Shown here: positions 5,177-37,932 of the stretch, in pieces
Layout: every line of letters starts with the position of its first letter
Numbering within the stretch: the stretch's first letter is position 1
Virus record (IMG/VR): IMGVR_UViG_3300022218_000007
Location: 1-38,019 of that record
Length of the DNA stretch: 38,019 nt
DNA from: a virus
Taxonomy: Duplodnaviria; Caudoviricetes
Direction: 5' to 3' (one strand)
Notes under the pieces: model-generated
Databases searched by the model: none
What the model was told of the DNA's origin: nothing
The model's input: only the letters and a program-made list of their open reading frames with translations
Made by a program: the position numbers and the translations under genes

Positions 5177-5263
5177 ATACACTGTCCATGCCTCTTAACA
5201 ATGCACACTTTGGGCAGTTTTTTTATGCCTGTAAAATAAATATAAAATAATTTAAAATAAAGC

Positions 5264-8016: not shown

Positions 8017-8481
8017 ATGCATAAGAATGAACATAAAATAACACATGGAGAAACCGGAACGCCAACATATGAAACATGGAAAGGAATGATGAAGAGATGC
8101 TATAACGAAAACCATATAGCTTTCCGTCATTACGGTGGCAGGGGGATAAAGGTATGCGAGAAATGGCATAAATATATAAATTTCAAGAATGATATGGGAA
8201 CCAAGCCTGATAATCTATCTATAGATCGTATAGATAATGATGGCAATTATACTCCCGATAATTGTAGGTGGGCCACAATGAAAGAACAATCTTACAATAG
8301 AAGAAATAATAAACGATTAACATATAAAGGAATGACTAAAACTTTATACCAATGGGCTGAATCTGTAGATATGGATCCTCATACATTTACTAACCGAATA
8401 AGAAATGGGTGGTCTATAGAAAAGGCACTATTCCATCCAGTAGGCCCATGTCATAACCCAAATGGTAACAATGGGAGGTAG
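8017..8481 (+). CDS. HNH-type homing endonuclease
   Basis: HGETGTPTYETWKGMMKRCY, YGGRGIKVCEKW, SIDRIDNDGNYTPDNCRWAT..Q..NRR. Confidence 0.85.
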   Translation: MHKNEHKITHGETGTPTYETWKGMMKRCYNENHIAFRHYGGRGIKVCEKWHKYINFKNDMGTKPDNLSIDRIDNDGNYTPDNCRWATMKEQSYNRRNNKRLTYKGMTKTLYQWAESVDMDPHTFTNRIRNGWSIEKALFHPVGPCHNPNGNNGR

Positions 8482-8987: not shown

Positions 8988-9677
8988 ATGAGCGAAGAGA
9001 ACGACAAGCAGTATTTAGCACAGATATTGCCAAAGCTTAAAGAGACTATGCCTTACAAATGGCGGGTGCAATCATTCAATAAGAACAAGCCGCAGGCAAC
9101 CTGTGTCGCATACATTGATGCAAGGGATGTTATGGATAGGCTTGACAATGTTTGTGCTTATGGTTGGCATAGAAATCATCAAGAGATGAAGGGCCGTATC
9201 TATGCCGGAGTAGGAATAATTCTCCCCTCTGGCAATATCATGTGGCGGTGGGATTGTGGAACAGAATCAAACACGGAAGCCGAAAAAGGGGAGTCCAGCG
9301 ATAGTTTTAAACGTGCAGCAGTTAATGTTGGAGTAGGACGTTTTCTTTATGATTTAGATATTAAATATTTAGATGCAAACGAGAAGAAAACAAGCAATAA
9401 CTATCCTTATGTGGTGGATAATAAGGGCAAGAGAGTTTGGGATATTACCAAACATATTAATAGGCCAAACAAGCCACCTAAACAACAAGAGCCTGAAAGA
9501 AACTGGATAGCTGAAATAAAAACAGCTTCTACAGAAGAGGAACTAAAGGCTATATTTGGTGAAGCTTATAAATCAACGAAAGGAGAAGAGAAGGCAACAG
9601 TAAAGAGAGAGTATGATAAACGTAAGATTGAAATAACCGAGCTTGGCGGTCGTAGTCAGGCGCAAAGAGGAGAATAG
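8988..9677 (+). CDS. Rad52/Rad22-family (Sak-like) single-strand annealing recombinase
   Basis: AYIDARDVMDRLD ... EKGESSDSFKRAAVNVGVGRFLY, Rad52_Rad22 signature. Confidence 0.88.
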   Translation: MSEENDKQYLAQILPKLKETMPYKWRVQSFNKNKPQATCVAYIDARDVMDRLDNVCAYGWHRNHQEMKGRIYAGVGIILPSGNIMWRWDCGTESNTEAEKGESSDSFKRAAVNVGVGRFLYDLDIKYLDANEKKTSNNYPYVVDNKGKRVWDITKHINRPNKPPKQQEPERNWIAEIKTASTEEELKAIFGEAYKSTKGEEKATVKREYDKRKIEITELGGRSQAQRGE

Positions 9678-9911: not shown

Positions 9912-10014
9912 TTTGATGGGGAGTGGAAACACTAGGGAAATGGTTCCCTGCTTTATTTGGCAGATACGCCCCCATCAAACTTTTAATGAGCCTATTAGGT
10001 AGGTTGATTAAAGG
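9912..10014 (+). other. Structured non-coding segment (multi-branch stem plus hairpin) upstream of the cassette array
   Basis: TTTGATGGGG (9912) / CCCCATCAAA (9970) enclosing AGTG-gaaa-CACT and AGGGA-aatggt-TCCCT; a further hairpin at ~9982-10012. Confidence 0.4.
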
Positions 10015-10115
10015 GCTAAATATGCGGATAACCCGCAGCCAAAAAGAGTAGCGATATTGGACACATGGATTATGTTACCGCAGTTTATTTCGGGAACAAG
10101 ACCGAAGAATATTTA

Positions 10116-10220
10116 AATTAACCAGTTTATGGATTAAGGAGGAAACGATGAGCGAAGACAGAGAAGCATATAAAACGAAAAAGCCTATGAGCCAGTCCGC
10201 TGTTGAAGGACTGGTTATAG
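10116..10220 (-). repeat. attC-like site 1 (left arm degenerate)
   Basis: TAACCAGT ... GCCAG T CCGCTGTT G AAG gactg GTTA; contains the RBS and ATG 10148. Confidence 0.55.
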
Positions 10221-10351
10221 CCCTTGAAGCAACCAACAATGCTATGGTGGGGCTGATGACAAGCATAGCACAGCAAGGGACATTGCTGCCGGGGCGGTGG
10301 ATAGAAGAAGATTTAGCCAACATGGCTGACGCAAGAGAAAAGCTGGCCTGA
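10148..10351 (+). CDS. Cassette 1 hypothetical protein
   Basis: AAGGAGG RBS in the site; cassette ends GTTATAGCCC (10214) / GGGCTATAAC (10367). Confidence 0.65.
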   Translation: MSEDREAYKTKKPMSQSAVEGLVIALEATNNAMVGLMTSIAQQGTLLPGRWIEEDLANMADAREKLA

Positions 10352-10369
10352 CTAAAGAAAGACATGGGG

Positions 10370-10491
10370 CTATAACAGATTAGCTCAACTGCGGCCTGAC
10401 CCGCTTGAGCAAGGAGGATTTTAGATGAAAGACCAAGTAAAAACTGAGAATAATGCATCGTTGGCCGTCAATTTGCAGCGTTGGGTTAGGC
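10370..10491 (-). repeat. attC-like site 2
   Basis: TAAC agatta GCTCAACTG CGGCC ... GGCCG T CAATTTG C AGC gttgg GTTA. Confidence 0.8.
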
Positions 10492-10682
10492 GTTTTTTCC
10501 CTTACAAAGCGCATTTTGCCCTTGAATATGATAAAGGCTATGGCGTATTCAAAAGAACAGGGTGGACGGTTATAATAGGGTATTCGATAGTTTGTCAACT
10601 TGAAAAGTATCTTATTTGGGCGCTAGTTAAATCATTATGGCGATATCAAAGCTGGGAGTTAGAGAGCAAACTAAACGCATAA
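10425..10682 (+). CDS. Cassette 2 hypothetical protein
   Basis: Starts inside site 2; ends GTTAGGCGTTT / AAACGCATAAC (1 mismatch); stop codon is the TAA of TAAC. Confidence 0.65.
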   Translation: MKDQVKTENNASLAVNLQRWVRRFFPYKAHFALEYDKGYGVFKRTGWTVIIGYSIVCQLEKYLIWALVKSLWRYQSWELESKLNA

Positions 10683-10874
10683 CAATTTAATTCAATGGCA
10701 TTTGCCACTGAGGAGGACGGAAAGATGGAAGAAATATGGAAATGCGATAAATGTGGACATGAAGGCGGCAACAAGGGCGACTACTCCATTATTCACGAGA
10801 ACTGTGGGGGACAATTTTGCCTTACAACTCAAACAGAACCCGTGGCAGATGTCCTTTGCAATGTGGGGTTATCT
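10677..10874 (-). repeat. attC-like site 3 (long coding loop)
   Basis: TAAC aattta ATTCAATGG CATTTGCCAC ... GTGGCAGATG T CCTTTG C AAT gtggg GTTA. Confidence 0.75.
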
Positions 10875-11030
10875 GCCATTGCTGATTTAATAGAACGGGC
10901 GCAAGATGACACATGTAGGGCGCAAAGACGACTTAGCATGTTTAGAGAAGGGGCGGCAAGAGTTGAGGCGTTGAACGCTAAGCAATGTTTAATCTTGGCT
11001 ATTGATAAATTTAATGAGCTTGGCATATAA
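10725..11030 (+). CDS. Cassette 3 hypothetical protein (N-terminal CxxC encoded in the site loop)
   Basis: GAGGAGG RBS; ends GTTATCTGCCA / TGGCATATAAC. Confidence 0.65.
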   Translation: MEEIWKCDKCGHEGGNKGDYSIIHENCGGQFCLTTQTEPVADVLCNVGLSAIADLIERAQDDTCRAQRRLSMFREGAARVEALNAKQCLILAIDKFNELGI

Positions 11031-11148
11031 CGGGTGAGATAACTGGAAGGTTCCCCGCTCAATGCGGGGGTTCTTCCGGTTCATCGTATGGTTAGGGCGG
11101 CTGTCTCTATAGCCGACCCTCATTATGAAGTTATCTCACCCGTTAAGG
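11025..11148 (-). repeat. attC-like site 4 with nested inverted repeat
   Basis: TAAC gggtga GATAACTGGAAG...CTTCCGGTT C ATC gtatg GTTA (to 11094); 11028-11043 is also exactly inverted at 11130-11145. Confidence 0.75.
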
Positions 11149-11182
11149 CGTCGCGGAGCGATAAAATTAAAGGAGATTTAGT

Positions 11183-11368
11183 ATGAGTGATGAAAAGATT
11201 ATTTTGAAGCCCTGTCCGTTTTGCGGAAAGGAGCCAAGAACAGGACCATCGCCCCGGCATGGCGATTGGGCAATATATTGTCCGAATGTAGTTTGTGGAG
11301 CTATGATTGATCGTAGAAAATCGTATGTAGCGGCAGCAAGTGCGTGGAACCAGAGGACAGGGCGATAG
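11183..11368 (+). CDS. Cassette 4: Lar-family (restriction alleviation) Zn-finger protein
   Basis: LKPCPFCG ... CPNVVCG ... AASAWNQR; cassette ends GTTAAGGCGTCGCGG (11142) / CCGCGACGCCTTAAC (11383), 15/15. Confidence 0.75.
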   Translation: MSDEKIILKPCPFCGKEPRTGPSPRHGDWAIYCPNVVCGAMIDRRKSYVAAASAWNQRTGR

Positions 11369-11390
11369 GCACTTACACGCTACCGCGACG

Positions 11391-11458
11391 CCTTAACGAA
11401 ACGCTAAGCTGTGAGCGGAACGAATTGTAGCGAGTCCGTCTTCAGCAGTGTGTTATAT
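11391..11458 (-). repeat. attC-like site 5
   Basis: TAAC gaaac GCTAAG ... GCGAG T CCGTCTT C AGC agtgt GTTA. Confidence 0.75.
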
Positions 11459-11476
11459 TTTGCGTTCACTTTTAGC

Positions 11477-11505
11477 TTGACATTAGCAAACCGCTTTGTT
11501 AAGGT
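11477..11505 (+). promoter_or_regulatory. Cassette-internal promoter
   Basis: TTGACA -17 bp- TAAGGT with extended -10 TG. Confidence 0.55.
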
Positions 11506-11534
11506 TAAGTATAACCTAAATTAAGGAGGGTACT

Positions 11535-11984
11535 ATGAAATGCTATGACTGTGAAAAGGAATTGACGAAAGAGAAAGAAGAGTTTGGAATATGTGAGCCG
11601 TGCGAAGAAATTAGGGCTAACAAAATGCTTGATGAGATGGAAGAAGAAAACGCACAAAAAGAGATGGACAGAGTTAATAAAGAGGAATGGCAGAGAGAGT
11701 TTTCCAAAAGCGGTGGGTTAAAGAAGAGTGAGAAAAAAACTGAGGCCTGCCGAAAGAATGCAAGCAAGCCTAGGGCGAGGTGGGCAACGGCAATATATTA
11801 CGAGATAGAATATAAGGGGCCAAATGGCAAACGAGGGATTAAGGACGGCCTAATATTGCAAAAAGGGTGTATGAACACCTCCCTTGATTGTAACCGTGAG
11901 GAAGTTGTTGAATTGCTAGAAAAACATTCAGGACAGAAAATAGTTGATTTAAGAAAGTTTCAATCAATGATTAAAAAAATATAA
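11535..11984 (+). CDS. Cassette 5 hypothetical protein (Zn-finger plus basic GG..KSEKK..ACRKNASKPR motif, possibly DNA-binding)
   Basis: AAGGAGG RBS; ends GTTATATTTT (11452) / AAAATATAAC (11976). Confidence 0.7.
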   Translation: MKCYDCEKELTKEKEEFGICEPCEEIRANKMLDEMEEENAQKEMDRVNKEEWQREFSKSGGLKKSEKKTEACRKNASKPRARWATAIYYEIEYKGPNGKRGIKDGLILQKGCMNTSLDCNREEVVELLEKHSGQKIVDLRKFQSMIKKI

Positions 11985-12102
11985 CGTGAAGCTCAACCGC
12001 CGCATTTAATGGCAAATAGGAGGGATGAGGAAATGACAACAGAAAGCAAAGCAGATCAAGAAGCAACCAAGGTTAGCGGTCATTTGAAGCGTGGGGTTAT
12101 GC
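11979..12102 (-). repeat. attC-like site 6 (near-identical to the site at 22589)
   Basis: 25-bp and 60-bp exact matches to 22589-22613 and 22651-22710. Confidence 0.85.
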
Positions 12103-12287
12103 AAAATACGGGAGTTATGTGCATGATTACAGTTAATGACAATAACGCTATTGACGGAATAAGGCATGTAGATATGGGAAATTATTATAAGACTGAAACA
12201 GGTGAACAAGTGGTAGTTACCACAAAAGAATTAGCACAAAGATATCATAAGCTGATAGATGACACTATTTACGTGAGGAAAGCATAA
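12033..12287 (+). CDS. Cassette 6 hypothetical protein
   Basis: Starts inside site 6; ends GTTATGC / GCATAAC. Confidence 0.65.
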   Translation: MTTESKADQEATKVSGHLKRGVMQNTGVMCMITVNDNNAIDGIRHVDMGNYYKTETGEQVVVTTKELAQRYHKLIDDTIYVRKA

Positions 12288-12405
12288 CGTGCAAGCTAAA
12301 GGGCTGGCACACCAAGACTAAAGAGAGGAAACCATGACCAAAGATAGAGAGTATCCCAAAAAAGATGCGCCCCTTAGCCAGTCCGGTTTGAGCGATTTGT
12401 TATCT
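12282..12405 (-). repeat. attC-like site 7
   Basis: TAAC gtgcaa GCTAAAGGG CTGGC ... GCCAG T CCGGTTT G AGC gattt GTTA. Confidence 0.8.
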
Positions 12406-12606
12406 GCGACTCAGGCCGAAGAGGATAGTCATTTTGACGAACAGGTTGCAAAGTGTGGTGACTATGACAACCCTGAAAATGGATGCCCGAAATGTGGCAG
12501 ACAAAGGGTGATGTTGGATGCTGATAAAAAACACAGATGCGAAAAATGCGCTTGGTGCATTGAGGACAATGACTATGACGGAGACTTCTTTCGTCATTTG
12601 AGATGA
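12334..12606 (+). CDS. Cassette 7 zinc-ribbon protein
   Basis: CPKCG...CEKC; starts inside site 7; ends GTTATCTGC / GCAGATAAC. Confidence 0.7.
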   Translation: MTKDREYPKKDAPLSQSGLSDLLSATQAEEDSHFDEQVAKCGDYDNPENGCPKCGRQRVMLDADKKHRCEKCAWCIEDNDYDGDFFRHLR

Positions 12607-12608
12607 GC

Positions 12609-12738
12609 AGATAACGGTGAATTGAGGAGCAAGCGAATGGATGAAATATTACATACAAAACTAGGACCAGGACTTGATTTTGACCCGCTGGAAGAGAAGC
12701 AAGAAGTGAGCGCAGTCGCCTCGAATGTGGGGTTAGAC
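12609..12738 (-). repeat. attC-like site 8
   Basis: TAAC ggtga ATTGAGG ... CCTC G AAT gtggg GTTA. Confidence 0.7.
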
Positions 12739-12891
12739 AGCATCACCTTCTCTAGGGCGCAAGAAAAACAATTAAAATATTTAATAGAAAATGGCGGCAA
12801 ATATAGCGCAGGAACTGTATTTGTGCAAATGCCTAACGGCAAAACAATGTCAGTTGACCCTTTCGGGCGTGTCAAAACGATTGCTGGCTAA
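12637..12891 (+). CDS. Cassette 8 hypothetical protein
   Basis: GAGGAG RBS lies in the site arm; ends GTTAGACAGCA / TGCTGGCTAAC. Confidence 0.65.
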   Translation: MDEILHTKLGPGLDFDPLEEKQEVSAVASNVGLDSITFSRAQEKQLKYLIENGGKYSAGTVFVQMPNGKTMSVDPFGRVKTIAG

Positions 12892-12975
12892 CGAAAAGGG
12901 TAACACGCGCCTGTAAAGCGCACCCTATGAAATTAAAGACGCCGTTAGGCGTCAGATTTAATTTGATGGTTAGGC
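12886..12975 (-). repeat. attC-like site 9 (degenerate)
   Basis: TAAC...CGCCT / AGGCG...tgatg GTTA, with an internal GACGCC-gtta-GGCGTC hairpin. Confidence 0.55.
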
Positions 12976-13005
12976 AAAACAACTTTAATTGATAAGGGGG
13001 TTTAA

Positions 13006-13266
13006 GTGGAATTTATAGAAGGAGATGTTCTTTCGTACAAAGGCGGCTTGGCTATTACTAGCACCGAGGCTGGAATAGTAAAAATGTATGAAGGCCGATT
13101 AGTTAATTTTTACGGGCAAGCCTTTGGAGAAGATAATTTCGATGAAATAGATGATGTTATTAGTGCAGGATTTGAGCATATCGGGAATATAAACACAGAT
13201 AAGGAATTGCTTGAAAGAATGGAGGAAGCTACCCGAGTGCATAATGACTGGATGGACCAGAATTAA
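13006..13266 (+). CDS. Cassette 9: YopX-like C-terminal domain protein
   Basis: IEGDVL ... FEHIGNINTDKELLE resembles the YopX EGDI...EVIGNIYENPELL pattern; ends GTTAGGCAA / TTGCCTAAC. Confidence 0.55.
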   Translation: MEFIEGDVLSYKGGLAITSTEAGIVKMYEGRLVNFYGQAFGEDNFDEIDDVISAGFEHIGNINTDKELLERMEEATRVHNDWMDQN

Positions 13267-13268
13267 TT

Positions 13269-13401
13269 GCCTAACGTTTGACTTAACGGGCTTGCGGCCC
13301 AGGGAGGAAACATGATACCACCAAACGAAAGAGGGTTAAGCACCCTAAAAACTTCAGATGACACCAGTGTTAGCGAGTCCGAGTTGAAGGAATTGTTATA
13401 T
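13269..13401 (-). repeat. attC-like site 10
   Basis: TAAC gtttga CTTAACGGG CTTGC ... GCGAG T CCGAGTT G AAG gaatt GTTA. Confidence 0.8.
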
Positions 13402-13557
13402 GGCGGTGCATACAATTTTAAATATCAGACAGATCGACTCAAATATATTGGCAAGAAAGGCGGCTGGCACCAATTTGAAAAGGTTGGAAAGATGGGGGTG
13501 TGGTGCGAGTTGCTTGATAGTGACCTACACCTGATTGAAGAAACTCAAGACAGATAA
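13312..13557 (+). CDS. Cassette 10 hypothetical protein
   Basis: GGAGG RBS in the site; ends GTTATATGGC / GACAGATAAC (2 mismatches). Confidence 0.65.
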   Translation: MIPPNERGLSTLKTSDDTSVSESELKELLYGGAYNFKYQTDRLKYIGKKGGWHQFEKVGKMGVWCELLDSDLHLIEETQDR

Positions 13558-13614
13558 CGGTGAGGTCACCAGCCGGAGCCATCGGCGACGGTCCGGTGGA
13601 GCGCTGGGTTCTAT
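13552..13614 (-). repeat. attC-like site 11
   Basis: TAAC ggtga GGTCACC ... T CCGGTG G AGC gctgg GTTC. Confidence 0.75.
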
Positions 13615-13639
13615 TTCGCGCCAATAAAGGAGGATAGAT

Positions 13640-13843
13640 ATGATTAAAAAAGTAGAGATTACAGACTGTCATGACACAAATGTGCATTGGGAGGGAACAG
13701 GTGAGTTTACATTGTGTGGATTAGAGGCTTTAGACGGTGACCCTGGCATAGGATTGGGGGCAGCTAAAGAAACAAGAAAGAAAGTTGACTGCCAAACTTG
13801 TCTTGATATAGTCGATCATGTTCGACATATATTAAAGAAATAG
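13640..13843 (+). CDS. Cassette 11 Cys/His protein
   Basis: AAAGGAGG RBS; ends GTTCTATTTC / GAAATAGAAC, 10/10. Confidence 0.7.
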   Translation: MIKKVEITDCHDTNVHWEGTGEFTLCGLEALDGDPGIGLGAAKETRKKVDCQTCLDIVDHVRHILKK

Positions 13844-14053
13844 AACGAATTAATTCAGGGGCTTTTTGCCACTGAGAGGAGATGGGAAAATGGACAGGTT
13901 GAAAGTAGAAATAGAAATAGCACAATTGATATATGACAATATAAGCCCGGATGATCGGAAGCTAACATCAAGGACAATGGCTGCAAAAATAATGACCCTT
14001 ATAACCGAAAAAGAACCCGTGGCAACAAGTCCCGCTGCAATGACTGGTTCTGC
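13840..14053 (-). repeat. attC-like site 12 (long coding loop; related to site 3)
   Basis: GAAC gaatta ATTCAGGGG CTTTTTGCCAC ... GTGGCAACAAG T CCCGCTG C AAT gactg GTTC. Confidence 0.75.
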
Positions 14054-14213
14054 TGCGTTGCTTCGTGAAATGAAAGACGAACTTAGAGGGCATATAAGCG
14101 AACATGAGCTTGATGACGGTGACGAACTGGACACTGAAACCGAGGATTTGATTCTCGGCTGGATAGATAACTTTTTTGAAAACAAAATACATGACATGGA
14201 GCAAGAGCAGTAG
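13890..14213 (+). CDS. Cassette 12 hypothetical protein
   Basis: GAGGAG RBS in the site; ends GTTCTGCTGC / GCAGTAGAAC. Confidence 0.65.
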   Translation: MDRLKVEIEIAQLIYDNISPDDRKLTSRTMAAKIMTLITEKEPVATSPAAMTGSAALLREMKDELRGHISEHELDDGDELDTETEDLILGWIDNFFENKIHDMEQEQ

Positions 14214-14287
14214 AACAGACCAGCTCAGCAGCAGACATAAGCGAAGCAAAGCGAGTGTTGGCTGTCAGCTGGAGCGCCTTGTTAGGC
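14210..14287 (-). repeat. attC-like site 13
   Basis: GAAC agacca GCTCAGCAG CAG ... CTG T CAGCTG G AGC gcctt GTTA. Confidence 0.8.
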
Positions 14288-14293
14288 GAAACC

Positions 14294-14527
14294 ATGGAGA
14301 TTAAAGTGATGGAATTTACAGACAAAGAATATAAATGGCTCAAAGAAGCGGATAGACTATTTAAAAAGAAACCTAAAGGCTTGATGTTATATTCCTGCGA
14401 CAGCGACATTATAGTGTGCAAAAAGGGAGCGAACTGTGGTGATGTTTCCCATAAGATATTTAACAGTGATATCAATTGTTGTAATGTGCTTGTTGATGTG
14501 CATGACGACTATGGTTATGGAGCCTAA
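14294..14527 (+). CDS. Cassette 13 hypothetical protein (start uncertain)
   Basis: Ends GTTAGGC / GCCTAAC; stop codon is the TAA of the core. Confidence 0.6.
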   Translation: MEIKVMEFTDKEYKWLKEADRLFKKKPKGLMLYSCDSDIIVCKKGANCGDVSHKIFNSDINCCNVLVDVHDDYGYGA

Positions 14528-14610
14528 CAAATGTGATAACCAGCGGCAGGAAACGAACACTTAAAAAGCAGAATGGCTGTTAGCCGTCTGCGTTGATTAG
14601 GGGGTTAGGA
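14522..14610 (-). repeat. attC-like site 14
   Basis: TAAC aaatgt GATAACCAG CGGC ... GCCG T CTGCGTT G ATT agggg GTTA. Confidence 0.8.
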
Positions 14611-14616
14611 GGATCT

Positions 14617-14943
14617 ATGAGCGATATATTTACGCACGGCCAACAAATAGAATGCCCTGAATGCCCAGGGACTGGTAAAAGGCAAAGAAAGCCCGTATTA
14701 GAAATGTTGTCAAAAAACTATAGTGGTTGCTCGGTTGACTTTGGCGGTTGCCCAGAATGTGGAAAGGCATGGCAAGTTAGCTATAAAATTGACAACATGA
14801 CCCACGAAGCCGACTGGGATATTCCTTCAAGAAAAGAGAGAGAGCAAGCAGAGGAAAAGGAAGCGGCTAGAAAGCTAGAACAAAAGGAACTGGAAGAATA
14901 CAAGGAATTTGAGAGGCTTAGAGTAAAATTTGGAGCCTCCTAA
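14617..14943 (+). CDS. Cassette 14 zinc-ribbon/coiled-coil protein
   Basis: CPEC x2; the cassette end GTTAGGAGG doubles as the RBS and is matched by CCTCCTAAC (14936). Confidence 0.7.
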   Translation: MSDIFTHGQQIECPECPGTGKRQRKPVLEMLSKNYSGCSVDFGGCPECGKAWQVSYKIDNMTHEADWDIPSRKEREQAEEKEAARKLEQKELEEYKEFERLRVKFGAS

Positions 14944-15022
14944 CTATGAATTAACCAGTGGCGCAACGAAGCCCACTGGAAAAGAAAACGTAACCGCCAT
15001 CTGGTTGAATGGCGTGTTATGC
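14938..15022 (-). repeat. attC-like site 15
   Basis: Minus strand reads TAAC acgcc ATTCAACC AGATGGCG...; plus strand has unpaired T and G on the right arm. Confidence 0.85.
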
Positions 15023-15035
15023 GCGAGGTGATTAA

Positions 15036-15257
15036 ATGAGAGTTGAAAAAACTGGGTATGGAGATAGAGAAGTAGATCACTTGAAAGACGCTGGTCTTGA
15101 AAATAAATTTGCTTCTTTTGAGCAAGTAGAGGACTCGCAGCCAGAGATAGGAATGTATATCGGCTGGAACGAGCCTAAAAAGTTTTGGAAACCATTTTTA
15201 TATATCTCACTCTGGCGGGTTAATTTGAGAATAGGCTGGCTTTGGGAGAGCGCATAA
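15036..15257 (+). CDS. Cassette 15 hypothetical protein
   Basis: GAGGTG RBS; ends GTTATGCGC / GCGCATAAC. Confidence 0.65.
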   Translation: MRVEKTGYGDREVDHLKDAGLENKFASFEQVEDSQPEIGMYIGWNEPKKFWKPFLYISLWRVNLRIGWLWESA

Positions 15258-15338
15258 CAAGTTTAATAAGCTGGCTGTGAACACAAACACTAAAAACGAA
15301 AACACCCCTAACAGCTCCGCTTGATTTAGGGGTTATCT
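15252..15338 (-). repeat. attC-like site 16
   Basis: TAAC aagttt AATAAGC...CTGT ... ACAG..CCGCTT G ATT taggg GTTA. Confidence 0.75.
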
Positions 15339-15350
15339 TGCGAGGATATT

Positions 15351-15551
15351 ATGAAAAGAATAAATTTTAACTGGTTATTTATATGCGGACATATCGGCCC
15401 TGATCTGATTTGGTTTAGAATGGGAACATGGGGCGCAGGAATTGTGGCAAAAAACACCCCTGCTCTTTATAGCGAAAGATGCAAATTTATGATATATCAT
15501 AAAATACCTTTCTCGAAGTGGAGATGTGGATTTTTAAAGGCAGCAAGATAA
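15351..15551 (+). CDS. Cassette 16 hypothetical protein
   Basis: Ends GTTATCTTGC / GCAAGATAAC, 10/10. Confidence 0.65.
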   Translation: MKRINFNWLFICGHIGPDLIWFRMGTWGAGIVAKNTPALYSERCKFMIYHKIPFSKWRCGFLKAAR

Positions 15552-15675
15552 CGATTTGAGCTAAGCGGCTTGTGGCTTAAATTGTTAGAGCCGCTTCAAA
15601 GTAAATAAATATTAATATACCAACGCTGAAAAAGAGGCCACTATTAACAAGTCCGTCTTCAGCGATTGGTTAGCA
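15546..15675 (-). repeat. attC-like site 17
   Basis: TAAC gatttga GCTAAGCGG CTTGT ... ACAAG T CCGTCTT C AGC gattg GTTA. Confidence 0.8.
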
Positions 15676-15713
15676 CCAATATGCTTCTTATGGACTACCC
15701 GTCTGCAAACTAC

Positions 15714-15836
15714 CTATTTGCCGCATTTGCGACCGATAGGCTTGGGCTTAGACCGTTTATGTGCCGGAACACTAACAGTTTTTGGCCCAGGTTTTTTGCC
15801 GACCCGTACAGGACGACACTTGACCTTTGTTGCCAT
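15714..15836 (-). CDS. Cassette 17: 40-aa highly basic peptide (not in ORF track)
   Basis: AAGGAGGT RBS; MATKVKCRPVRVGKKPGPKTVSVPAHKRSKPKPIGRKCGK. Confidence 0.55.
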   Translation of the reverse strand: MATKVKCRPVRVGKKPGPKTVSVPAHKRSKPKPIGRKCGK

Positions 15837-15947
15837 TTGAACCACCTCCTTTTTTGGCCAGTTGCCAACCCATGAATCAACTGACCATATAGAGTGATAT
15901 CAAAAGTGACGGGTAGCCCATAAGGGGCATATTGAAAGGAGTATACT

Positions 15948-16169
15948 ATGAAAAAGATAGAGCAAGAAATAAGACAGCAGGTGGCACTTCAATTAATTAA
16001 AGCTGATGTACCACCCGCAGATATCCTAAATAATGCAGGTCCAATTTCAGAGTGGATTATTTCGGGCTACCACCAGCAGCAACATTCCAACATTCAGAAT
16101 AAAGCGCAAGCCAATATTGTCTGTCCTTTGGTTTTGTGTCCGTCTCTGAGTTCGCAATCCTCTTCATGA
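15948..16169 (+). CDS. Cassette 17 hypothetical protein (3' half overlaps an antisense ORF)
   Basis: AAAGGAG RBS; 73 aa. Confidence 0.45.
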   Translation: MKKIEQEIRQQVALQLIKADVPPADILNNAGPISEWIISGYHQQQHSNIQNKAQANIVCPLVLCPSLSSQSSS

Positions 16170-16224
16170 GATCGTATGCAACGCGGGACTTGGAATCGTT
16201 CTCTAATACAACTTTTTCTGCCAT
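16057..16224 (-). CDS. Cassette 17: 55-aa hypothetical protein (not in ORF track)
   Basis: AAAGGAGG RBS; MAEKVVLENDSKSRVAYDLMKRIANSETDTKPKDRQYWLALYSECWNVAAGGSPK; cassette ends GTTAGCAC (15669) / GTGCTAAC (16258). Confidence 0.6.
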   Translation of the reverse strand: MAEKVVLENDSKSRVAYDLMKRIANSETDTKPKDRQYWLALYSECWNVAAGGSPK

Positions 16225-16258
16225 GATATATCCTCCTTTGGATTTATTAGGGTTTGAG

Positions 16259-16391
16259 TGCTAACAAATTAAATTCAAGGGCTTGCGGGTCAAGGAGGGA
16301 ACACATGGAAATGACAGCAGATTATTACCCAAAAGGGAAACCTGAAAACGAGAACACCATTAGCAAGTCCTTTTGCAATGATGGGTTAGGC
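16259..16391 (-). repeat. attC-like site 18
   Basis: TAAC aaattaa ATTCAAGGG CTTGC ... GCAAG T CCTTTTG C AAT gatgg GTTA. Confidence 0.8.
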
Positions 16392-16670
16392 CCCCGTATC
16401 TTACATTTAACTCTCAAAAAAAAGTGGTTTGATATGATTGCCTTTGGAGTCAAGAAGGAAGAGTATCGAGAGATGAAGCCGTATTGGCATAAGAGATTGC
16501 TTAATAAGGGCTATGATGTGATTCGTTTCAGAAACGGATACGCAAAAGATTCTCCAACCCTGACAGTAGAATATAAAGGACTTGAATCTAGCCTGGGAAT
16601 CATTGAATGGGGCGCCCCAGAAAAAACGCCAGTTTATATATTGAAGCTTGGAAGGATTCTAGGGGCATAA
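16305..16670 (+). CDS. Cassette 18: ASCH/PUA-like domain protein
   Basis: LHLTLKKKWFDMIAFGVKKEEYRE...FRNGY...YILKLG; starts inside site 18; ends GTTAGGCCCC / GGGGCATAAC. Confidence 0.75.
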   Translation: MEMTADYYPKGKPENENTISKSFCNDGLGPRILHLTLKKKWFDMIAFGVKKEEYREMKPYWHKRLLNKGYDVIRFRNGYAKDSPTLTVEYKGLESSLGIIEWGAPEKTPVYILKLGRILGA

Positions 16671-16687
16671 CAAGGCGATATCAGGAC
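16665..16687 (-). other. Unpaired core half-site (attI/secondary-site-like) at the array end
   Basis: TAAC aaggc GATATCAGGAC; no partner arm downstream. Confidence 0.45.
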
Positions 16688-16702
16688 TTCTCAAAGTAAG
16701 CT

Positions 16703-17068
16703 ATGACTGGATATAATAAAAAATTCAACTACTTACAAAGACTATCTAAGCGACAACTTGAGGCGGCTGATCGTGCTAGGTTAGAACGTGAAATATATTA
16801 TCCTGAGTTGTTTGTCGAGCCTGATGTATGGTATGAAAATACATTAAAGGATAGATTTGGCAAAGAGCACACTATGCGCTTACTTAATCGTGAGGGTAAA
16901 AGATGCGATAGCTATATAGTTGAGTATATGGGGCATATAGTGTATGTAAATAGGTTTGGTAATTTGGTATTAAATGAAACTAGGAAGCCATTAGTGTTGG
17001 GTTTATCTGAGGCTATGAGATTTATGGCAAAGCAGTTTCCGAGGATATCAAGGAGGCATGATGAGTAG
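16703..17068 (+). CDS. Hypothetical protein
   Basis: 121-aa ORF overlapping the start of the next gene. Confidence 0.6.
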   Translation: MTGYNKKFNYLQRLSKRQLEAADRARLEREIYYPELFVEPDVWYENTLKDRFGKEHTMRLLNREGKRCDSYIVEYMGHIVYVNRFGNLVLNETRKPLVLGLSEAMRFMAKQFPRISRRHDE

Positions 17069-17465
17069 ATTTATAGGTATAGATCCTGGCAAGAAGACAG
17101 CAATTGCAGTTTACGACTCTACCCTTAAACGTGTTATAGATGTTTTCAATACCGACTTTTGGGGGGCTTATGAATATTTACAGACAGAACAGAATGATAT
17201 CCTAATAAAGAAGGTTATTATCGAAGTGCCGCGAACTAAATCAAACTGGCATAAAAAGGGATGCGATATAACCTCTGCAAACATTGGTGGTATTTATCGA
17301 GAGGCGACTTTACTTGCTGATGGCATAGAAAGAATGGGGCTGAAAGTAGTCCGGCAACATCCGCAAGGTAAGGTTGATGCGGCATACGTGAAGAAGATAA
17401 CTGGCTATCAAGGGAAGACTAATGAACATTCAAGAGATGCAATTATGCTTTGTTGGGGGTTTTGA
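17058..17465 (+). CDS. RuvC-like Holliday junction resolvase
   Basis: FIGIDPG, IIEVP, EHSRDAIML: RNase H-fold acidic residues. Confidence 0.75.
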   Translation: MMSRFIGIDPGKKTAIAVYDSTLKRVIDVFNTDFWGAYEYLQTEQNDILIKKVIIEVPRTKSNWHKKGCDITSANIGGIYREATLLADGIERMGLKVVRQHPQGKVDAAYVKKITGYQGKTNEHSRDAIMLCWGF

Positions 17466-22250: not shown

Positions 22251-22594
22251 TGGAAGATAAAAAACAAAGAACGCCACCACAGAATAGATCTTTGCACAAG
22301 TATTGCACTAATCTTGCAAATGCTTTAAATGACGCTGGCTTAGATATGAAGAAAACTCTCAAGCCTGAAATAGATATACCTTGGACTTGCGAGAGCGTAA
22401 AGACTCACCTATATAAACCTATATTAAAATCTCTCACCGGTAAAGAATCGACTATAGACATGGACACGAAAGATCCTTCAATAGTGTATGAGATATTAAA
22501 CAGATTTATGGGGGAAAAACATGGTATAATAGTAGACTGGCCTAGCAGAGAATCACAAAGCAATGAAGCTATGGGGATTAAGAAAAGCATATAA
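22250..22594 (+). CDS. NinB/DUF1367-like recombination accessory protein
   Basis: KQRTPPQNRSLHKY...ST..M...GIIVDWP; TAATG coupling; stop codon is the TAA of the attC core. Confidence 0.55.
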   Translation: MEDKKQRTPPQNRSLHKYCTNLANALNDAGLDMKKTLKPEIDIPWTCESVKTHLYKPILKSLTGKESTIDMDTKDPSIVYEILNRFMGEKHGIIVDWPSRESQSNEAMGIKKSI

Positions 22595-22712
22595 CGTGAA
22601 GCTCAACCGCCGCGTTGAGAGAGGAGAACTAAGAATATGAAAGAACCTATAGAAAGCAAAGCAGATCAAGAAGCAACCAAGGTTAGCGGTCATTTGAAGC
22701 GTGGGGTTATAT
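22589..22712 (-). repeat. attC-like site (solo cassette B)
   Basis: Same length as site 6 and identical to it over 25 + 60 bp. Confidence 0.85.
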
Positions 22713-22933
22713 TTGACCAAGAGGCATTGAAAATCAAGCTCAGACGGGCCACGATAGCTAAGACAAAGTGGGATAACAGGGGGTGGTATATCTGTGATAG
22801 TTCTGGAATATATCATCTCTATGATGATGGGATAGTTCGACATGGCGCAACAAGCCCAAGAAGTGAAGGAGTGTCGGCTTTTTGGAGGACAAGGAAAGAG
22901 GCAAGAATGTTTTATGACGGGTGGAAAATATAA
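22637..22933 (+). CDS. Solo cassette B hypothetical protein
   Basis: Starts inside the site; shares ESKADQEATKVSGHLKRGV with cassette 6, then diverges; ends GTTATATTT (22706) / AAATATAAC (22926). Confidence 0.7.
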   Translation: MKEPIESKADQEATKVSGHLKRGVIFDQEALKIKLRRATIAKTKWDNRGWYICDSSGIYHLYDDGIVRHGATSPRSEGVSAFWRTRKEARMFYDGWKI

Positions 22934-22989
22934 CGCCAAGCTATCTTTGATAGCAAAACATAATCCAACATTTAATATTGATAATAAGC

Positions 22990-35525: not shown

Positions 35526-35653
35526 AGATGAGAGAATTAGTTAGTTTTTTTATGTTATTTAGTTTAGCAGTAAGCGCAATGTTGTATAAGGATATTAAAA
35601 CCGAGAGAAATATTGAGCAAGCGCAAAAGCAGGAGGTCGTAAAAGTTAATTAA
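35522..35653 (+). CDS. Small membrane peptide (43 aa; not in ORF track)
   Basis: ATGA overlap upstream, TAATG coupling downstream; hydrophobic N-terminus. Confidence 0.45.
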   Translation: MKMRELVSFFMLFSLAVSAMLYKDIKTERNIEQAQKQEVVKVN

Positions 35654-37932
35654 TGATTTCTCTCTCCCCCATATTCCAAGAAGCAAATAATCAACCAGAA
35701 AAAGAGCGTGATGTTCTTGTAATGGTTGAGGATGAAACCTTATTTGCGGAAAAATATACAGAGACTGATTGGGGGAATAATACCGCCGAGAGTAACGTTG
35801 ATTATACTTCTCCTACTCCTGATGCTGGCGATGTAATATTAGCGTATTATCCAGATAATTTGTGGGTGGTGGATAGTGTCACAAATAAGTTTTACAATAT
35901 TAAGCAAGATGGCACATGGATTAGTGAGTTTGCCTCTTCTGTCTTTGATGCTAGTGCAACGGATCCCTATGGCGTAGCGCATGCCCCCGATGGAACATTA
36001 TGGGTAGTAGATGTTGCTACAGATAAAATATACAATGTCGAAACCGATGGCACATGGATTAGTGAATTTGCCTACTCTGTCATTGATGCTAGTATTACTT
36101 TGGTTCAATGTATTGAATATGGGGCTAATGATACTTTATGGATAACTGATAAAACAACTTCAAAGATTTATAATTGCGAAACTGATGGCACATTAATATC
36201 ATCTTTTGCATCTTCTGTTTATGATGGTAGTGCGGCAGATCCTTCCGGAATTTCAGAAGGTGCTAATGATACTTTATGGATAACTGATATAGGTATTGAT
36301 AAAATTTATAATACCGAAAAGGATGGGACGTTGATATCGTCATTTGCATCTTCCGTTTATGATTCAACACCGAGCATCCCTGTTGGAATTGATTATGCTG
36401 CGGATGGCACTCTATGGATATGCGATTCATCGGCAACAGATAAAATTTATAATGTGGAAACTGATGGGACGTTGATATCATCATTTGCGACTTCTGTTTT
36501 TGATGCTAGCGCAATTAGTGTCAGGGGGATTTCTTTCGGATATCCATATTATGCTACAGGCAATATTACAACAGATAATATTGACCTGGGAGAAGTGCCA
36601 ACGGCAGTGGGCGAGTGGGTGATTGAAGACATTGTGCCAACTGGCGCTACATTAACATATGCCGCAGAATATTCAACTACAGGCGCATGGGGAGGGGAAG
36701 AGGTTTCTATCGGGGCAATAGTAGACGGACAGGCAATCACAGTCCTTGCACGATACTGGAGGGTAACGGCAACATTAACAGCAAACACGGCAAGAGATGA
36801 AACACCTATACTGCAATCAATAAAAGCAGACTACACAACATACAGGCGATTTAACCGTATACCCGATTTAGGATATGAGCCTCTTGTTGATTCGGTAAGT
36901 TCCCTCACCTCAAAGGTAGACTTTTTCAAGCCTGCATCCATCGGCCAGATATCAGTTGACATACAATTGACTGATGCTGTTAGTGACTGGGTTTACAGTG
37001 ATACTCTATATAATAAAATAGTACAGGTAAAATTGGGCTTTAAATATGATGGATTCACCGAAGCGGATTATATTCATTATTTCACCGGGGCAATTGATGA
37101 TTGGCGGGTAAATGATAATGTCTTAAATCTGACACTTAAAGACTTGTCGAAAGAGTGGAAACTCCCCGTTCCGTCTAAGTGGGAGACTGTAGGAGATGAT
37201 AGAACATGGACAAATACCCACCATACTGACGTTATGCTTGACATATTTCAGAATGATATCAACGTGAGGGATTCGGGCTTATTGCTTGATTCTTTCGCTA
37301 CGGTAAAAGCGGCAACATCGGCTTATAATGTGACCAGAACGATCACAGGTAAGACAGAAGACGCGAAGAAGCTAGTAGAAGAGCTTAGAGTCCTCTTATT
37401 TGCCTTCTTTCTCCCTAGGGGAGATGGTAAAATAGGCATTAAGCAATTTGATAGCACAGAGGCCGCAGTAGTTTCCTTTACAGACGATAATACTATGGGG
37501 ATAAAATGGCAGGCTAACTCTAAAGACCTGATAAACAGGACTTCATTATATTATGACTGGGACACGCTGGGAGACAAAGAGGAGAATTTTGATAGTTATG
37601 ATGGAGGAGATGACACAACGAGCCAAACAGAGTTCCAAGAAATAAGGCCATATATACTTAAAGATAAATGGACTCTGGCTGCACAAGCCTCCCAGATATC
37701 AGACTTGGAGACTAAAATATTAGCACAGTTTGACAATATGCCTGCAACGGTGACTATCACTTGTGATGCTAAAGATATCGCATATGAGGCAGGAGACATG
37801 GCAAACGTGACAACACTTGAAGCCCCTGGAAGTGGTGGGGCTGGAATAACAGATGAGAAGTATTTAATAACAAGTAAGAATCTTGATTTTCTAGGTGATA
37901 GGATAATATTTAAAGGGTTGAAGGTAGCATGA
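35653..37932 (+). CDS. Tail tip/hub protein with an inserted beta-propeller repeat domain
   Basis: 759 aa; five 46-aa repeats; C-terminal DGKIGI and YEAGDMANV hub-like motifs. Confidence 0.65.
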   Translation: MISLSPIFQEANNQPEKERDVLVMVEDETLFAEKYTETDWGNNTAESNVDYTSPTPDAGDVILAYYPDNLWVVDSVTNKFYNIKQDGTWISEFASSVFDASATDPYGVAHAPDGTLWVVDVATDKIYNVETDGTWISEFAYSVIDASITLVQCIEYGANDTLWITDKTTSKIYNCETDGTLISSFASSVYDGSAADPSGISEGANDTLWITDIGIDKIYNTEKDGTLISSFASSVYDSTPSIPVGIDYAADGTLWICDSSATDKIYNVETDGTLISSFATSVFDASAISVRGISFGYPYYATGNITTDNIDLGEVPTAVGEWVIEDIVPTGATLTYAAEYSTTGAWGGEEVSIGAIVDGQAITVLARYWRVTATLTANTARDETPILQSIKADYTTYRRFNRIPDLGYEPLVDSVSSLTSKVDFFKPASIGQISVDIQLTDAVSDWVYSDTLYNKIVQVKLGFKYDGFTEADYIHYFTGAIDDWRVNDNVLNLTLKDLSKEWKLPVPSKWETVGDDRTWTNTHHTDVMLDIFQNDINVRDSGLLLDSFATVKAATSAYNVTRTITGKTEDAKKLVEELRVLLFAFFLPRGDGKIGIKQFDSTEAAVVSFTDDNTMGIKWQANSKDLINRTSLYYDWDTLGDKEENFDSYDGGDDTTSQTEFQEIRPYILKDKWTLAAQASQISDLETKILAQFDNMPATVTITCDAKDIAYEAGDMANVTTLEAPGSGGAGITDEKYLITSKNLDFLGDRIIFKGLKVA
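35860..36540 (+). repeat. Five tandem 138-nt coding repeats (NHL/propeller-like blades)
   Basis: LWxxD codons at 35860, 35998, 36136, 36274, 36412. Confidence 0.85.

Follow-up and report, generated by a model that had tools for sequence, protein, structure and literature searches.

Known phage attC arrays and the locus examined

In canonical integrons, the integrase IntI recombines the folded bottom strand of attC sites at AA|C, and this strand carries a 5' RYYYAAC and a 3' GTTRRRY box, an extra base at position 16 and a conserved T at position 23/24 (PMC5027507). Clusters of attC sites lacking integron integrases (CALINs) have also been described in phages by Qi et al. 2023, with six sites assayed (PMC9892861); attC1 and attC2 of phage H101 were recombined by IntI1, the bottom strand above the top strand (PMC9892861). 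The present analysis concerns an attC array in a virus of the class Caudoviricetes, IMG/VR record IMGVR_UViG_3300022218_000007, of which positions 1 to 38,019 (the window) were analyzed, and follows an earlier note that cassette open reading frames (ORFs) between 10116 and 16687 are systematically inverted relative to attC polarity. Judged from its sequence, the array comprises attC-bounded units with genes on the attC bottom strand, likely cut and joined at the left AA|C by an IntI from outside the genome. The inversion of genes with respect to attC is confirmed, and the interpretation is supported here with one cassette as the exception.

As in the phage CALINs (PMC9892861), at least two attC sites are clustered and no integron integrase was found in the window; the array is far longer, with 18 units versus 2-4 sites in the CALINs listed there. 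It resembles a row of integron cassettes in how it would work and can be classed as a phage CALIN, although its units do not carry the top-strand gene of canonical cassettes. Features held in common with canonical cassettes (PMC5027507) are the RYYYAAC/GTTRRRY boxes, L boxes, position-16 base, T at 23/24 and spacers of 5-7 nt, together with small single-gene units whose R boxes pair in the circle. Unlike in canonical cassettes, the genes of the window lie on the bottom strand after their own attC, with starts often in the loop. Insertion of ordinary cassettes through the top strand was rejected as an origin, since it turns gene and attC together and cannot give this layout.

The same inversion was found in several published phage sites. 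The bottom strands of H101 attC1 and attC2 (PMC9892861, Table S3) map to the coding strand ahead of genes, and attC2, which is present twice with a common downstream leader, resembles site 5 of the window. The ctTUS972 array is also inverted, with four covariance-model matches on the minus strand and genes on +, and P12002L attC1 has the inverted layout, its bottom strand being the coding strand. In phage TJE1 (L027 77-293 and 318-1075), whose cassettes have canonical polarity, each gene reads into its attC and ends within it, a mirror of the window layout. A word search of the available text of PMC9892861 found no mention of gene-versus-attC inversion, and the H101 array is called typical there. 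A full-text literature search, in which subscription journals are sparsely covered, returned no title or abstract on bottom-strand-gene arrays as a class.

attC anatomy and strand polarity

Eighteen right arms and 18 left arms were listed by eye and by script. There are 17 complete hairpins in the array (10370-16391) and one at 22589-22712, and the array's first site is decayed. RYYYAAC...GTTRRRY boxes surround an imperfect palindrome in all 18 complete sites; site 1 has AAT instead of AAC. A model with the extra bases on the right arm of the + strand and a right spacer of 5 nt was better than its mirror image in 18/18 sites, with left spacers of 5-7 nt, and a stricter script gave 17/18 with one tie at site 9. 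This is the geometry described in the earlier note, whose two quoted examples are present as written (site 15 at 14938-15022 and site 7 at 12282-12405); the minus strand of site 15 reads TAAC-acgcc-ATTCAACC, as given there. An unpaired T at position 23/24 from the right end was present in 18/18 sites, compared with 5/18 for the mirror A. The base at position 16 is G in eight sites, C in seven and A in three, and L-box pairing reaches 5.5-7 of 7 in 17/18 sites, with 3-4 of 7 at site 9. The + strand is purine-skewed at the sites (GC skew 0.15 and AT skew 0.19), in the direction in which the genome as a whole is skewed.

An attC scanner run over 10001-16800 reported 14 + sites and no minus sites, where 100 resamples from a first-order Markov model gave a mean of 0.05/0.07 and a maximum of 1. 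Rfam gave no match within the array. Canonical integrons taken from named records served as controls. In these, the extra base was on the left arm of the gene strand in 9/9 sites, and a leave-one-out matrix called the gene strand as top in 27/27. A covariance model built from 25 canonical control sites placed its ten best window matches on the minus strand and scored 14 of the 18 window sites best on that strand. The hairpin structure and this canonically trained model thus both support the proposal that the minus strand is the top strand here.

Unit ends and crossover point

The R box of each right arm was compared with the next left arm over four variable bases each. Matches were found at 65/72 positions (11/18 perfect), compared with 30/68 for the left arm of the same hairpin and a mean of 35.8 (maximum 54) in 100,000 permutations. 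Because the R boxes at its two ends are complementary, each gene body is considered a unit that closes into a circle; the test establishes circular units and is silent on polarity. Pairing beyond the R box gave no signal (5.7 vs 5.3 of 20).

The side of the crossover was judged by four independent lines: duplicated cassettes, comparison of the NinB locus, the array/integrase boundary and a junction copy. Related loci, sought mostly in viral collections, are cited below by L numbers. L010 (5136-5484) and L014 share 349 nt at 98.6%, from AAC to AAC and starting at the upstream TAAC, with different preceding genes and different following hairpins. L010 carries one cassette twice (86%) with the same AAC ends, L005 has two copies of a gene end (99%) that lead into different attC arms, and in eight further pairs similarity starts at AAC and continues past GTT into the leader of the downstream gene. 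Past the NinB-like gene, the sequence common to the window and L014 ends at one AAC, after which the two carry different cassettes; L016 is empty there. From the last TAAC onward, L005, L009 and L010 share a conserved block, after which comes intI, co-directional with the genes.

The fourth line is a reversed 32-nt copy, on the minus strand at 11129-11160, of the circle junction of cassette 4, made up of 14 nt of the cassette's start and 19 nt of its end. It scores 59, and 34 other junctions tested under both models score 32 or less. The copy points to closure at TAAC because closure at the right-arm G|TT would keep those ends apart, and its simplest origin would be template switching on a circle closed within TAAC. 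The hairpin at 11025-11148 has a fold z of -9.7. The reversed copy gives cassette 4 (11025-11160, 11376-11397) a second right arm, perfectly paired as a 17-bp perfect repeat and without extra bases, which may represent a snapshot of hairpin repair or site creation.

The cassette unit accordingly consists of C-spacer-hairpin-gene-TAA, from the left AA|C to the next AA|C. Assignment of each attC to the ORF downstream of it on +, as the earlier note had it, is borne out by three duplicated units in relatives, the array/integrase boundary, the swap at an orthologous AAC and the cassette 4 junction copy. The crossover expected at the left AAC is likewise supported where relatives are compared, at the ends of duplicated units, at the NinB-locus AAC and at the platform boundary at the last TAAC.

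Related phage loci and their integrases

Sites of this kind occur in nine viral loci found by pattern or by linkage to an integrase. In eight related loci, a crude rule taking the longest ORF with a Shine-Dalgarno (SD) sequence placed the gene of 32/38 units on the bottom strand, with three on the top strand and three without a call. This tally includes one zero-length artefact row, two of its three top-strand calls look spurious, and, the loci having been found with window-derived patterns, it shows recurrence and not frequency. An R-box tally over relatives (145 of 152) was set aside as biased, since the closing boxes had been selected by exact match. The IntI of L005 passes TIGR02249 (307.8 vs a cut-off of 265), and L017 has a 43% integrase relative in the same place. 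An intI adjoining the array, as in a complete integron, is found in L005, L009, L010 and L017 and not in the window. In these four loci intI lies on the bottom-strand side, opposite the attC top strand; relative to intI, attC polarity in the related phages is ordinary and the genes alone are flipped. Inverted-integrase integrons are those whose intI shares its strand with the attC top strand (PMC13323075). The related phages are like these in having intI co-directional with the cassette genes, and unlike them in that intI faces the attC top strand from the opposite side, the arrangement of regular integrons.

The right border of the window array (16665) matches the conserved block of IntI-bearing relatives over 7 nt only. 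That block, between array and intI (L005 2425-2460, L009 935-970, L010 6094-6130), contains a 6-bp inverted repeat with arms 9-11 nt apart and is a candidate attI or operator ahead of the phage intI. The last cassette of L017 carries a top-strand gene and resembles cassette 17 of the window. At about 5974 in L006, the leftmost site of another array has AAT for AAC, like window site 1, and a dead end site may anchor these arrays. An integron-integrase-like gene (38.5%) was observed at L021 4680-5678 (Virus Rctr41k), where the scanner found no attC nearby. Larger cassettes (L010 1879-2872, L010 4440-5130 and L005 1624-2412) resemble what we take, by eye, to be DNA methyltransferases and a PAPS-reductase-like protein.

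Scans with an IntI alignment yielded at least two loci in metagenomes and at least one in genomes. A blastn search with the array returned five short phage matches, all to the last gene, and no plasmid match. Site 5 gave only short matches among phages by blastn (E 0.1 or worse), and an exact-pattern scan with the right arm of site 6 gave 0 viral contigs. Two loci from a left-arm pattern scan were rejected as chance matches.

Cassette genes and attC-encoded leaders

The main ORF of each of the 19 cassettes (18 in the array and one lone cassette) was chosen by an SD-plus-start rule. In 18/19 it lies on +, the attC bottom strand, and not on the top strand as in canonical cassettes, so that the statement that nearly all ORFs point opposite to ordinary cassettes stands with cassette 17 as the exception. 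Ten of the 19 genes start in the hairpin loop, 60-157 nt ahead of the right-arm GTT, and in the nine of these with a complete site, 23-55 codons lie in attC. The stop codon is the TAA of the following TAA|C in twelve genes and a TAG directly before AAC in another two. In ORF 16305 the first 29 residues are attC-encoded, and likeness to an attC-free phage homolog sets in at residue 32.

Cassette genes matching phage families by PHROG number 6/19, Lar among them; Lar alone passes the Pfam cut-off among 24 proteins, and 0/3 candidate relatives of the cassette 10 protein were confirmed. A promoter consensus scan gave 36 matches, compared with 22.6 +/- 5.0 in shuffles, and a promoter (Pc) at the right end would point away from the genes. 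In L001 (5925-5985 and from about 6280), a homolog of the last cassette gene is preceded by a short AAC/GTT-ended hairpin that was not called by the scanner and followed by a tyrosine-recombinase-like gene, judged by eye.

Weighing of the evidence

Several observations weigh against mobile units with inverted genes. On the minus strand, cassette 17 (15552-16264) has two ORFs with a full AAGGAGG, and on + a single convergent ORF. No tyrosine recombinase was found among the 65 window ORFs by PHROG scan, and tblastn with an integron integrase query found no integron integrase in the window. Scoring each strand with the attC covariance model, a check suggested in the earlier note, came out for minus overall and not at every site: + is slightly favored at two sites (2 and 16), the sole match at site 14 is on + and has the wrong end, and site 3 is missed. 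A spacer-only sequence matrix favored minus in 12/18 sites only. attC length is 57-141 nt in 16/18 sites, with two longer at 198 and 214 nt; site 1, with its decayed left arm, and site 9 are damaged; the minimum-energy folds of site 15 lack the recombinogenic hairpin on either strand; and in the RNA fold the SD sequences are accessible to varying degrees (0.30-0.80 unpaired). Among published sites, P12002L attC1, the third inverted-type site assayed, did not recombine (PMC9892861), and the TJE1 array has canonical polarity.

Comparisons at unit ends add to these points. In three pairs, similarity extends 12-19 nt to the left of AAC, and about 12 homologous pairs share the attC core only, with similarity ending 2-6 nt into the right-arm GTT box; because of these core-only pairs, attC cores are taken to change gene bodies at GTT as well. 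Sites 6 and 22589 encode the same leader peptide with different bodies, each R box matching its own end. We read core-only similarity ending at GTT as the joint where cassettes are built. Such a joint is comparable to the repeat families of chromosomal integrons.

The build would be the same but immobile if the array were frozen, its sites once mobile and now retained solely for their role as leaders for translation and as N-terminal coding sequence. The lack of an integrase in the window genome, the decay of site 1 and hybrid nature of site 9, the long loops filled with coding sequence and the H101 copies with imperfect R-box partners all agree with this, but the 11/18 R-box pairs that remain perfect with the others off by one base, the 98.6% identical cassette at different array positions of two related phages and the full-length IntI genes of relatives make it unlikely. 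Another reading is that the phage merely captured its cassettes from a bacterial integron pool that is itself inverted, rather than having a class of its own. A canonical site from Shewanella (L020:14068-14123) does resemble the hairpin family, top-strand ORFs in cassette 17 and in the final cassette of L017 indicate that pools mix, and relatives were searched mainly in viral collections. Such an origin is nonetheless quite unlikely in view of the phage-family matches of 6/19 cassette genes, Lar included, an array without match in plasmids, and a genome scan with the phage IntI alignment that gave at least one distant locus (32%) with no such site there. The proposal in the earlier note of a phage-adapted cassette class is supported, short of proof; relatives were sought mostly in viral collections, and not every phage cassette is inverted, as TJE1 with its canonical polarity shows.

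That the + strand is the top strand, with integrases ignoring the side of the extra bases and crossing at the right-arm G|TT so that each site belongs to the upstream gene, is highly improbable. R-box complementarity fits either polarity, many shared attC cores end at GTT, and the exceptions of the covariance model and matrix noted above point the same way; against this, each exchange would split 10/19 genes, duplicated genes keep their upstream hairpin and not the downstream one, the cassette 4 junction copy joins at TAAC, and arrays end rightward in a bare AAC adjoining intI. The least probable explanation, barely credible here, is that the hairpins are linkers for homologous recombination, so that the array reflects ordinary phage mosaicism and the likeness to attC is incidental. 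The phage does encode an Erf-like annealing protein directly upstream and a junction resolvase downstream, and site 9 looks recombined within its hairpin, yet the geometry of unpaired bases is kept among sites mostly 60-82% alike, the breakpoints fall at AAC and the R boxes pair across each gene.

Organization of the array and the phage genome

The following sites are all given on the + strand, the attC bottom strand. Site 1 (about 10104-10220), with AAT for AAC in its decayed left arm, contains the SD and start of ORF 10148-10351. Site 2 (10370-10491) holds in its loop the start of ORF 10425-10682, which stops at TAA|C; the slightly better + match of the covariance model there uses a different right end. 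Site 3 (10677-10874, 198 nt) has the start of ORF 10725-11030 in its loop, and site 4 (11025-11097) heads a cassette (11031-11396) with a Lar-like restriction alleviation gene at 11183-11368. Site 5 (11391-11458), similar to the assayed H101 attC2, precedes ORF 11535-11984. Starts in the loop are then found at site 6 (11979-12102; ORF 12033-12287), which belongs to the site family of 22589, site 7 (12282-12405; ORF 12334-12606) and site 8 (12609-12738; ORF 12637-12891). Site 9 (12886-12975; ORF 13006-13266) pairs poorly and has apparently hybrid arms. Its left arm and loop are 91% like a site of L009, its right arm is different, and it looks like a hybrid from recombination inside the hairpin.

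Site 10 (13269-13401) holds the start of ORF 13312-13557 in its loop, site 11 (13552-13614) precedes ORF 13640-13843, and site 12 (13840-14053, 214 nt) again has a start in the loop (ORF 13890-14213). Site 13 (14210-14287) is followed by an ORF ending at 14527, site 14 (14522-14610), which is 86% like an L005 site, by ORF 14617-14943, site 15 (14938-15022) by ORF 15036-15257, and site 16 (15252-15338; 13.2 bits on + and 12.7 on minus by the covariance model) by ORF 15351-15551. Site 17 (15546-15675) heads cassette 17. Its two ORFs in canonical orientation lie on the minus strand at 16224-16057 and 15836-15714, the first overlapping the convergent + ORF 15948-16169 with a strong SD on both. A 27-nt inverted repeat (89%; 15677-15703 and 15908-15934) surrounds a 40-codon basic minus-strand ORF, and a homolog search with the 55-aa minus-strand protein matched only itself.

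Site 18 (16259-16391) includes the first 29 codons of ORF 16305-16670 (phrog_625). The closing R box GCATAAC (16665-16671, +) forms the right border of the array, which we infer to be attI-like or a secondary target. A possible 19th site at 16665-16786 lacks the T at 23/24 and has no closing box by eye. Outside the coordinates of the earlier note, a lone + strand cassette at 22589-22934, with attC at 22589-22712, ORF 22637-22933 and a closing ATATAAC, is inserted at the stop codon of the NinB-like gene. It fits the attG insertions of Loot et al. (bioRxiv 10.1101/2022.09.11.507474), in which a single cassette lies outside att with a neighboring promoter; those were described for canonical cassettes in bacterial genomes, whereas here insertion is at a stop codon in a phage, and the cassette gene runs with the bottom strand. 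Past the closing AAC of the lone cassette is a short perfect hairpin (22935-22960), also present at the same locus of L014 (reverse strand, about 8190-8220), there ahead of a GTT box, and probably what is left of a collapsed attC.

The window is a single contig with its long ORFs on the + strand, and is assigned to a tailed phage because it carries terminase, portal, capsid and tape measure genes, an Erf-like annealing protein and a junction resolvase. The array is flanked on the left by the Erf-like gene (8988-9677) and one small gene and on the right by the resolvase (17058-17465). The contig terminates within an open reading frame, and the phage genome may be circular. Upstream of the early genes, at 5182-5218, an Rfam abiF match is barely over the gathering score (37.8 vs 37). 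A 759-aa tail-region protein (35653-37932) has internal repeats and weak beta-propeller-type matches (Vgb and ScyF models, far under the cut-off).

Proposed mechanism and implications

For mobile units with bottom-strand genes, the + strand would fold and IntI would exchange it at AA|C as in ordinary integrons. A cassette would be excised as a circle with its gene whole and would be inserted again either at a different attC or at a secondary AAC target, for instance the stop codon of the gene resembling NinB. The enzyme would act in trans, likely a phage-borne IntI such as those at the right end of the relatives' arrays, or a host IntI. Expression would come by read-through from the upstream phage operon rather than from Pc at attI, with attC doubling as a portable 5' leader that supplies the SD, start codon and 23-55 N-terminal codons; SD and ATG in the loop would make each cassette self-starting, and TAA|C stop codons would double as targets. 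A new cassette would arise when an attC core is joined, at the right-arm GTT, to the body of a phage gene. If cassettes enter at the right end, the side next to intI in relatives, the newest ones would lie furthest from the promoter and site 1 would be the oldest, which fits its decay. A lagging-strand template favors attC folding (PMC5371416), and the fourfold-site GC skew of only 0.05 is too little to assign the + strand as that template.

The chances are about even that tailed phages run a mirror-image integron system of their own, in which phage IntI shuffles a phage-specific pool, attC serves as a 5' leader and cores are grafted at GTT. Strand selectivity in integrons is explained as a device that places genes sense-wise behind Pc. 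That the same attC geometry serves reversed genes implies that a second type of cassette exists, fitted to phage operons. Moved into the other system, a cassette of either type would be a silent antisense passenger, and the pools would be partly insulated even with a shared integrase. Software that pairs every attC with the gene upstream will cut these cassettes wrongly, and N-terminal extensions consisting of attC sequence will occur in many small phage proteins. The joints between attC cores and bodies, together with a gene found with and without its attC-encoded leader, bear on the question of cassette origin, and if the mirror-image system is real, these arrays would be a readable record of how integron cassettes arise.

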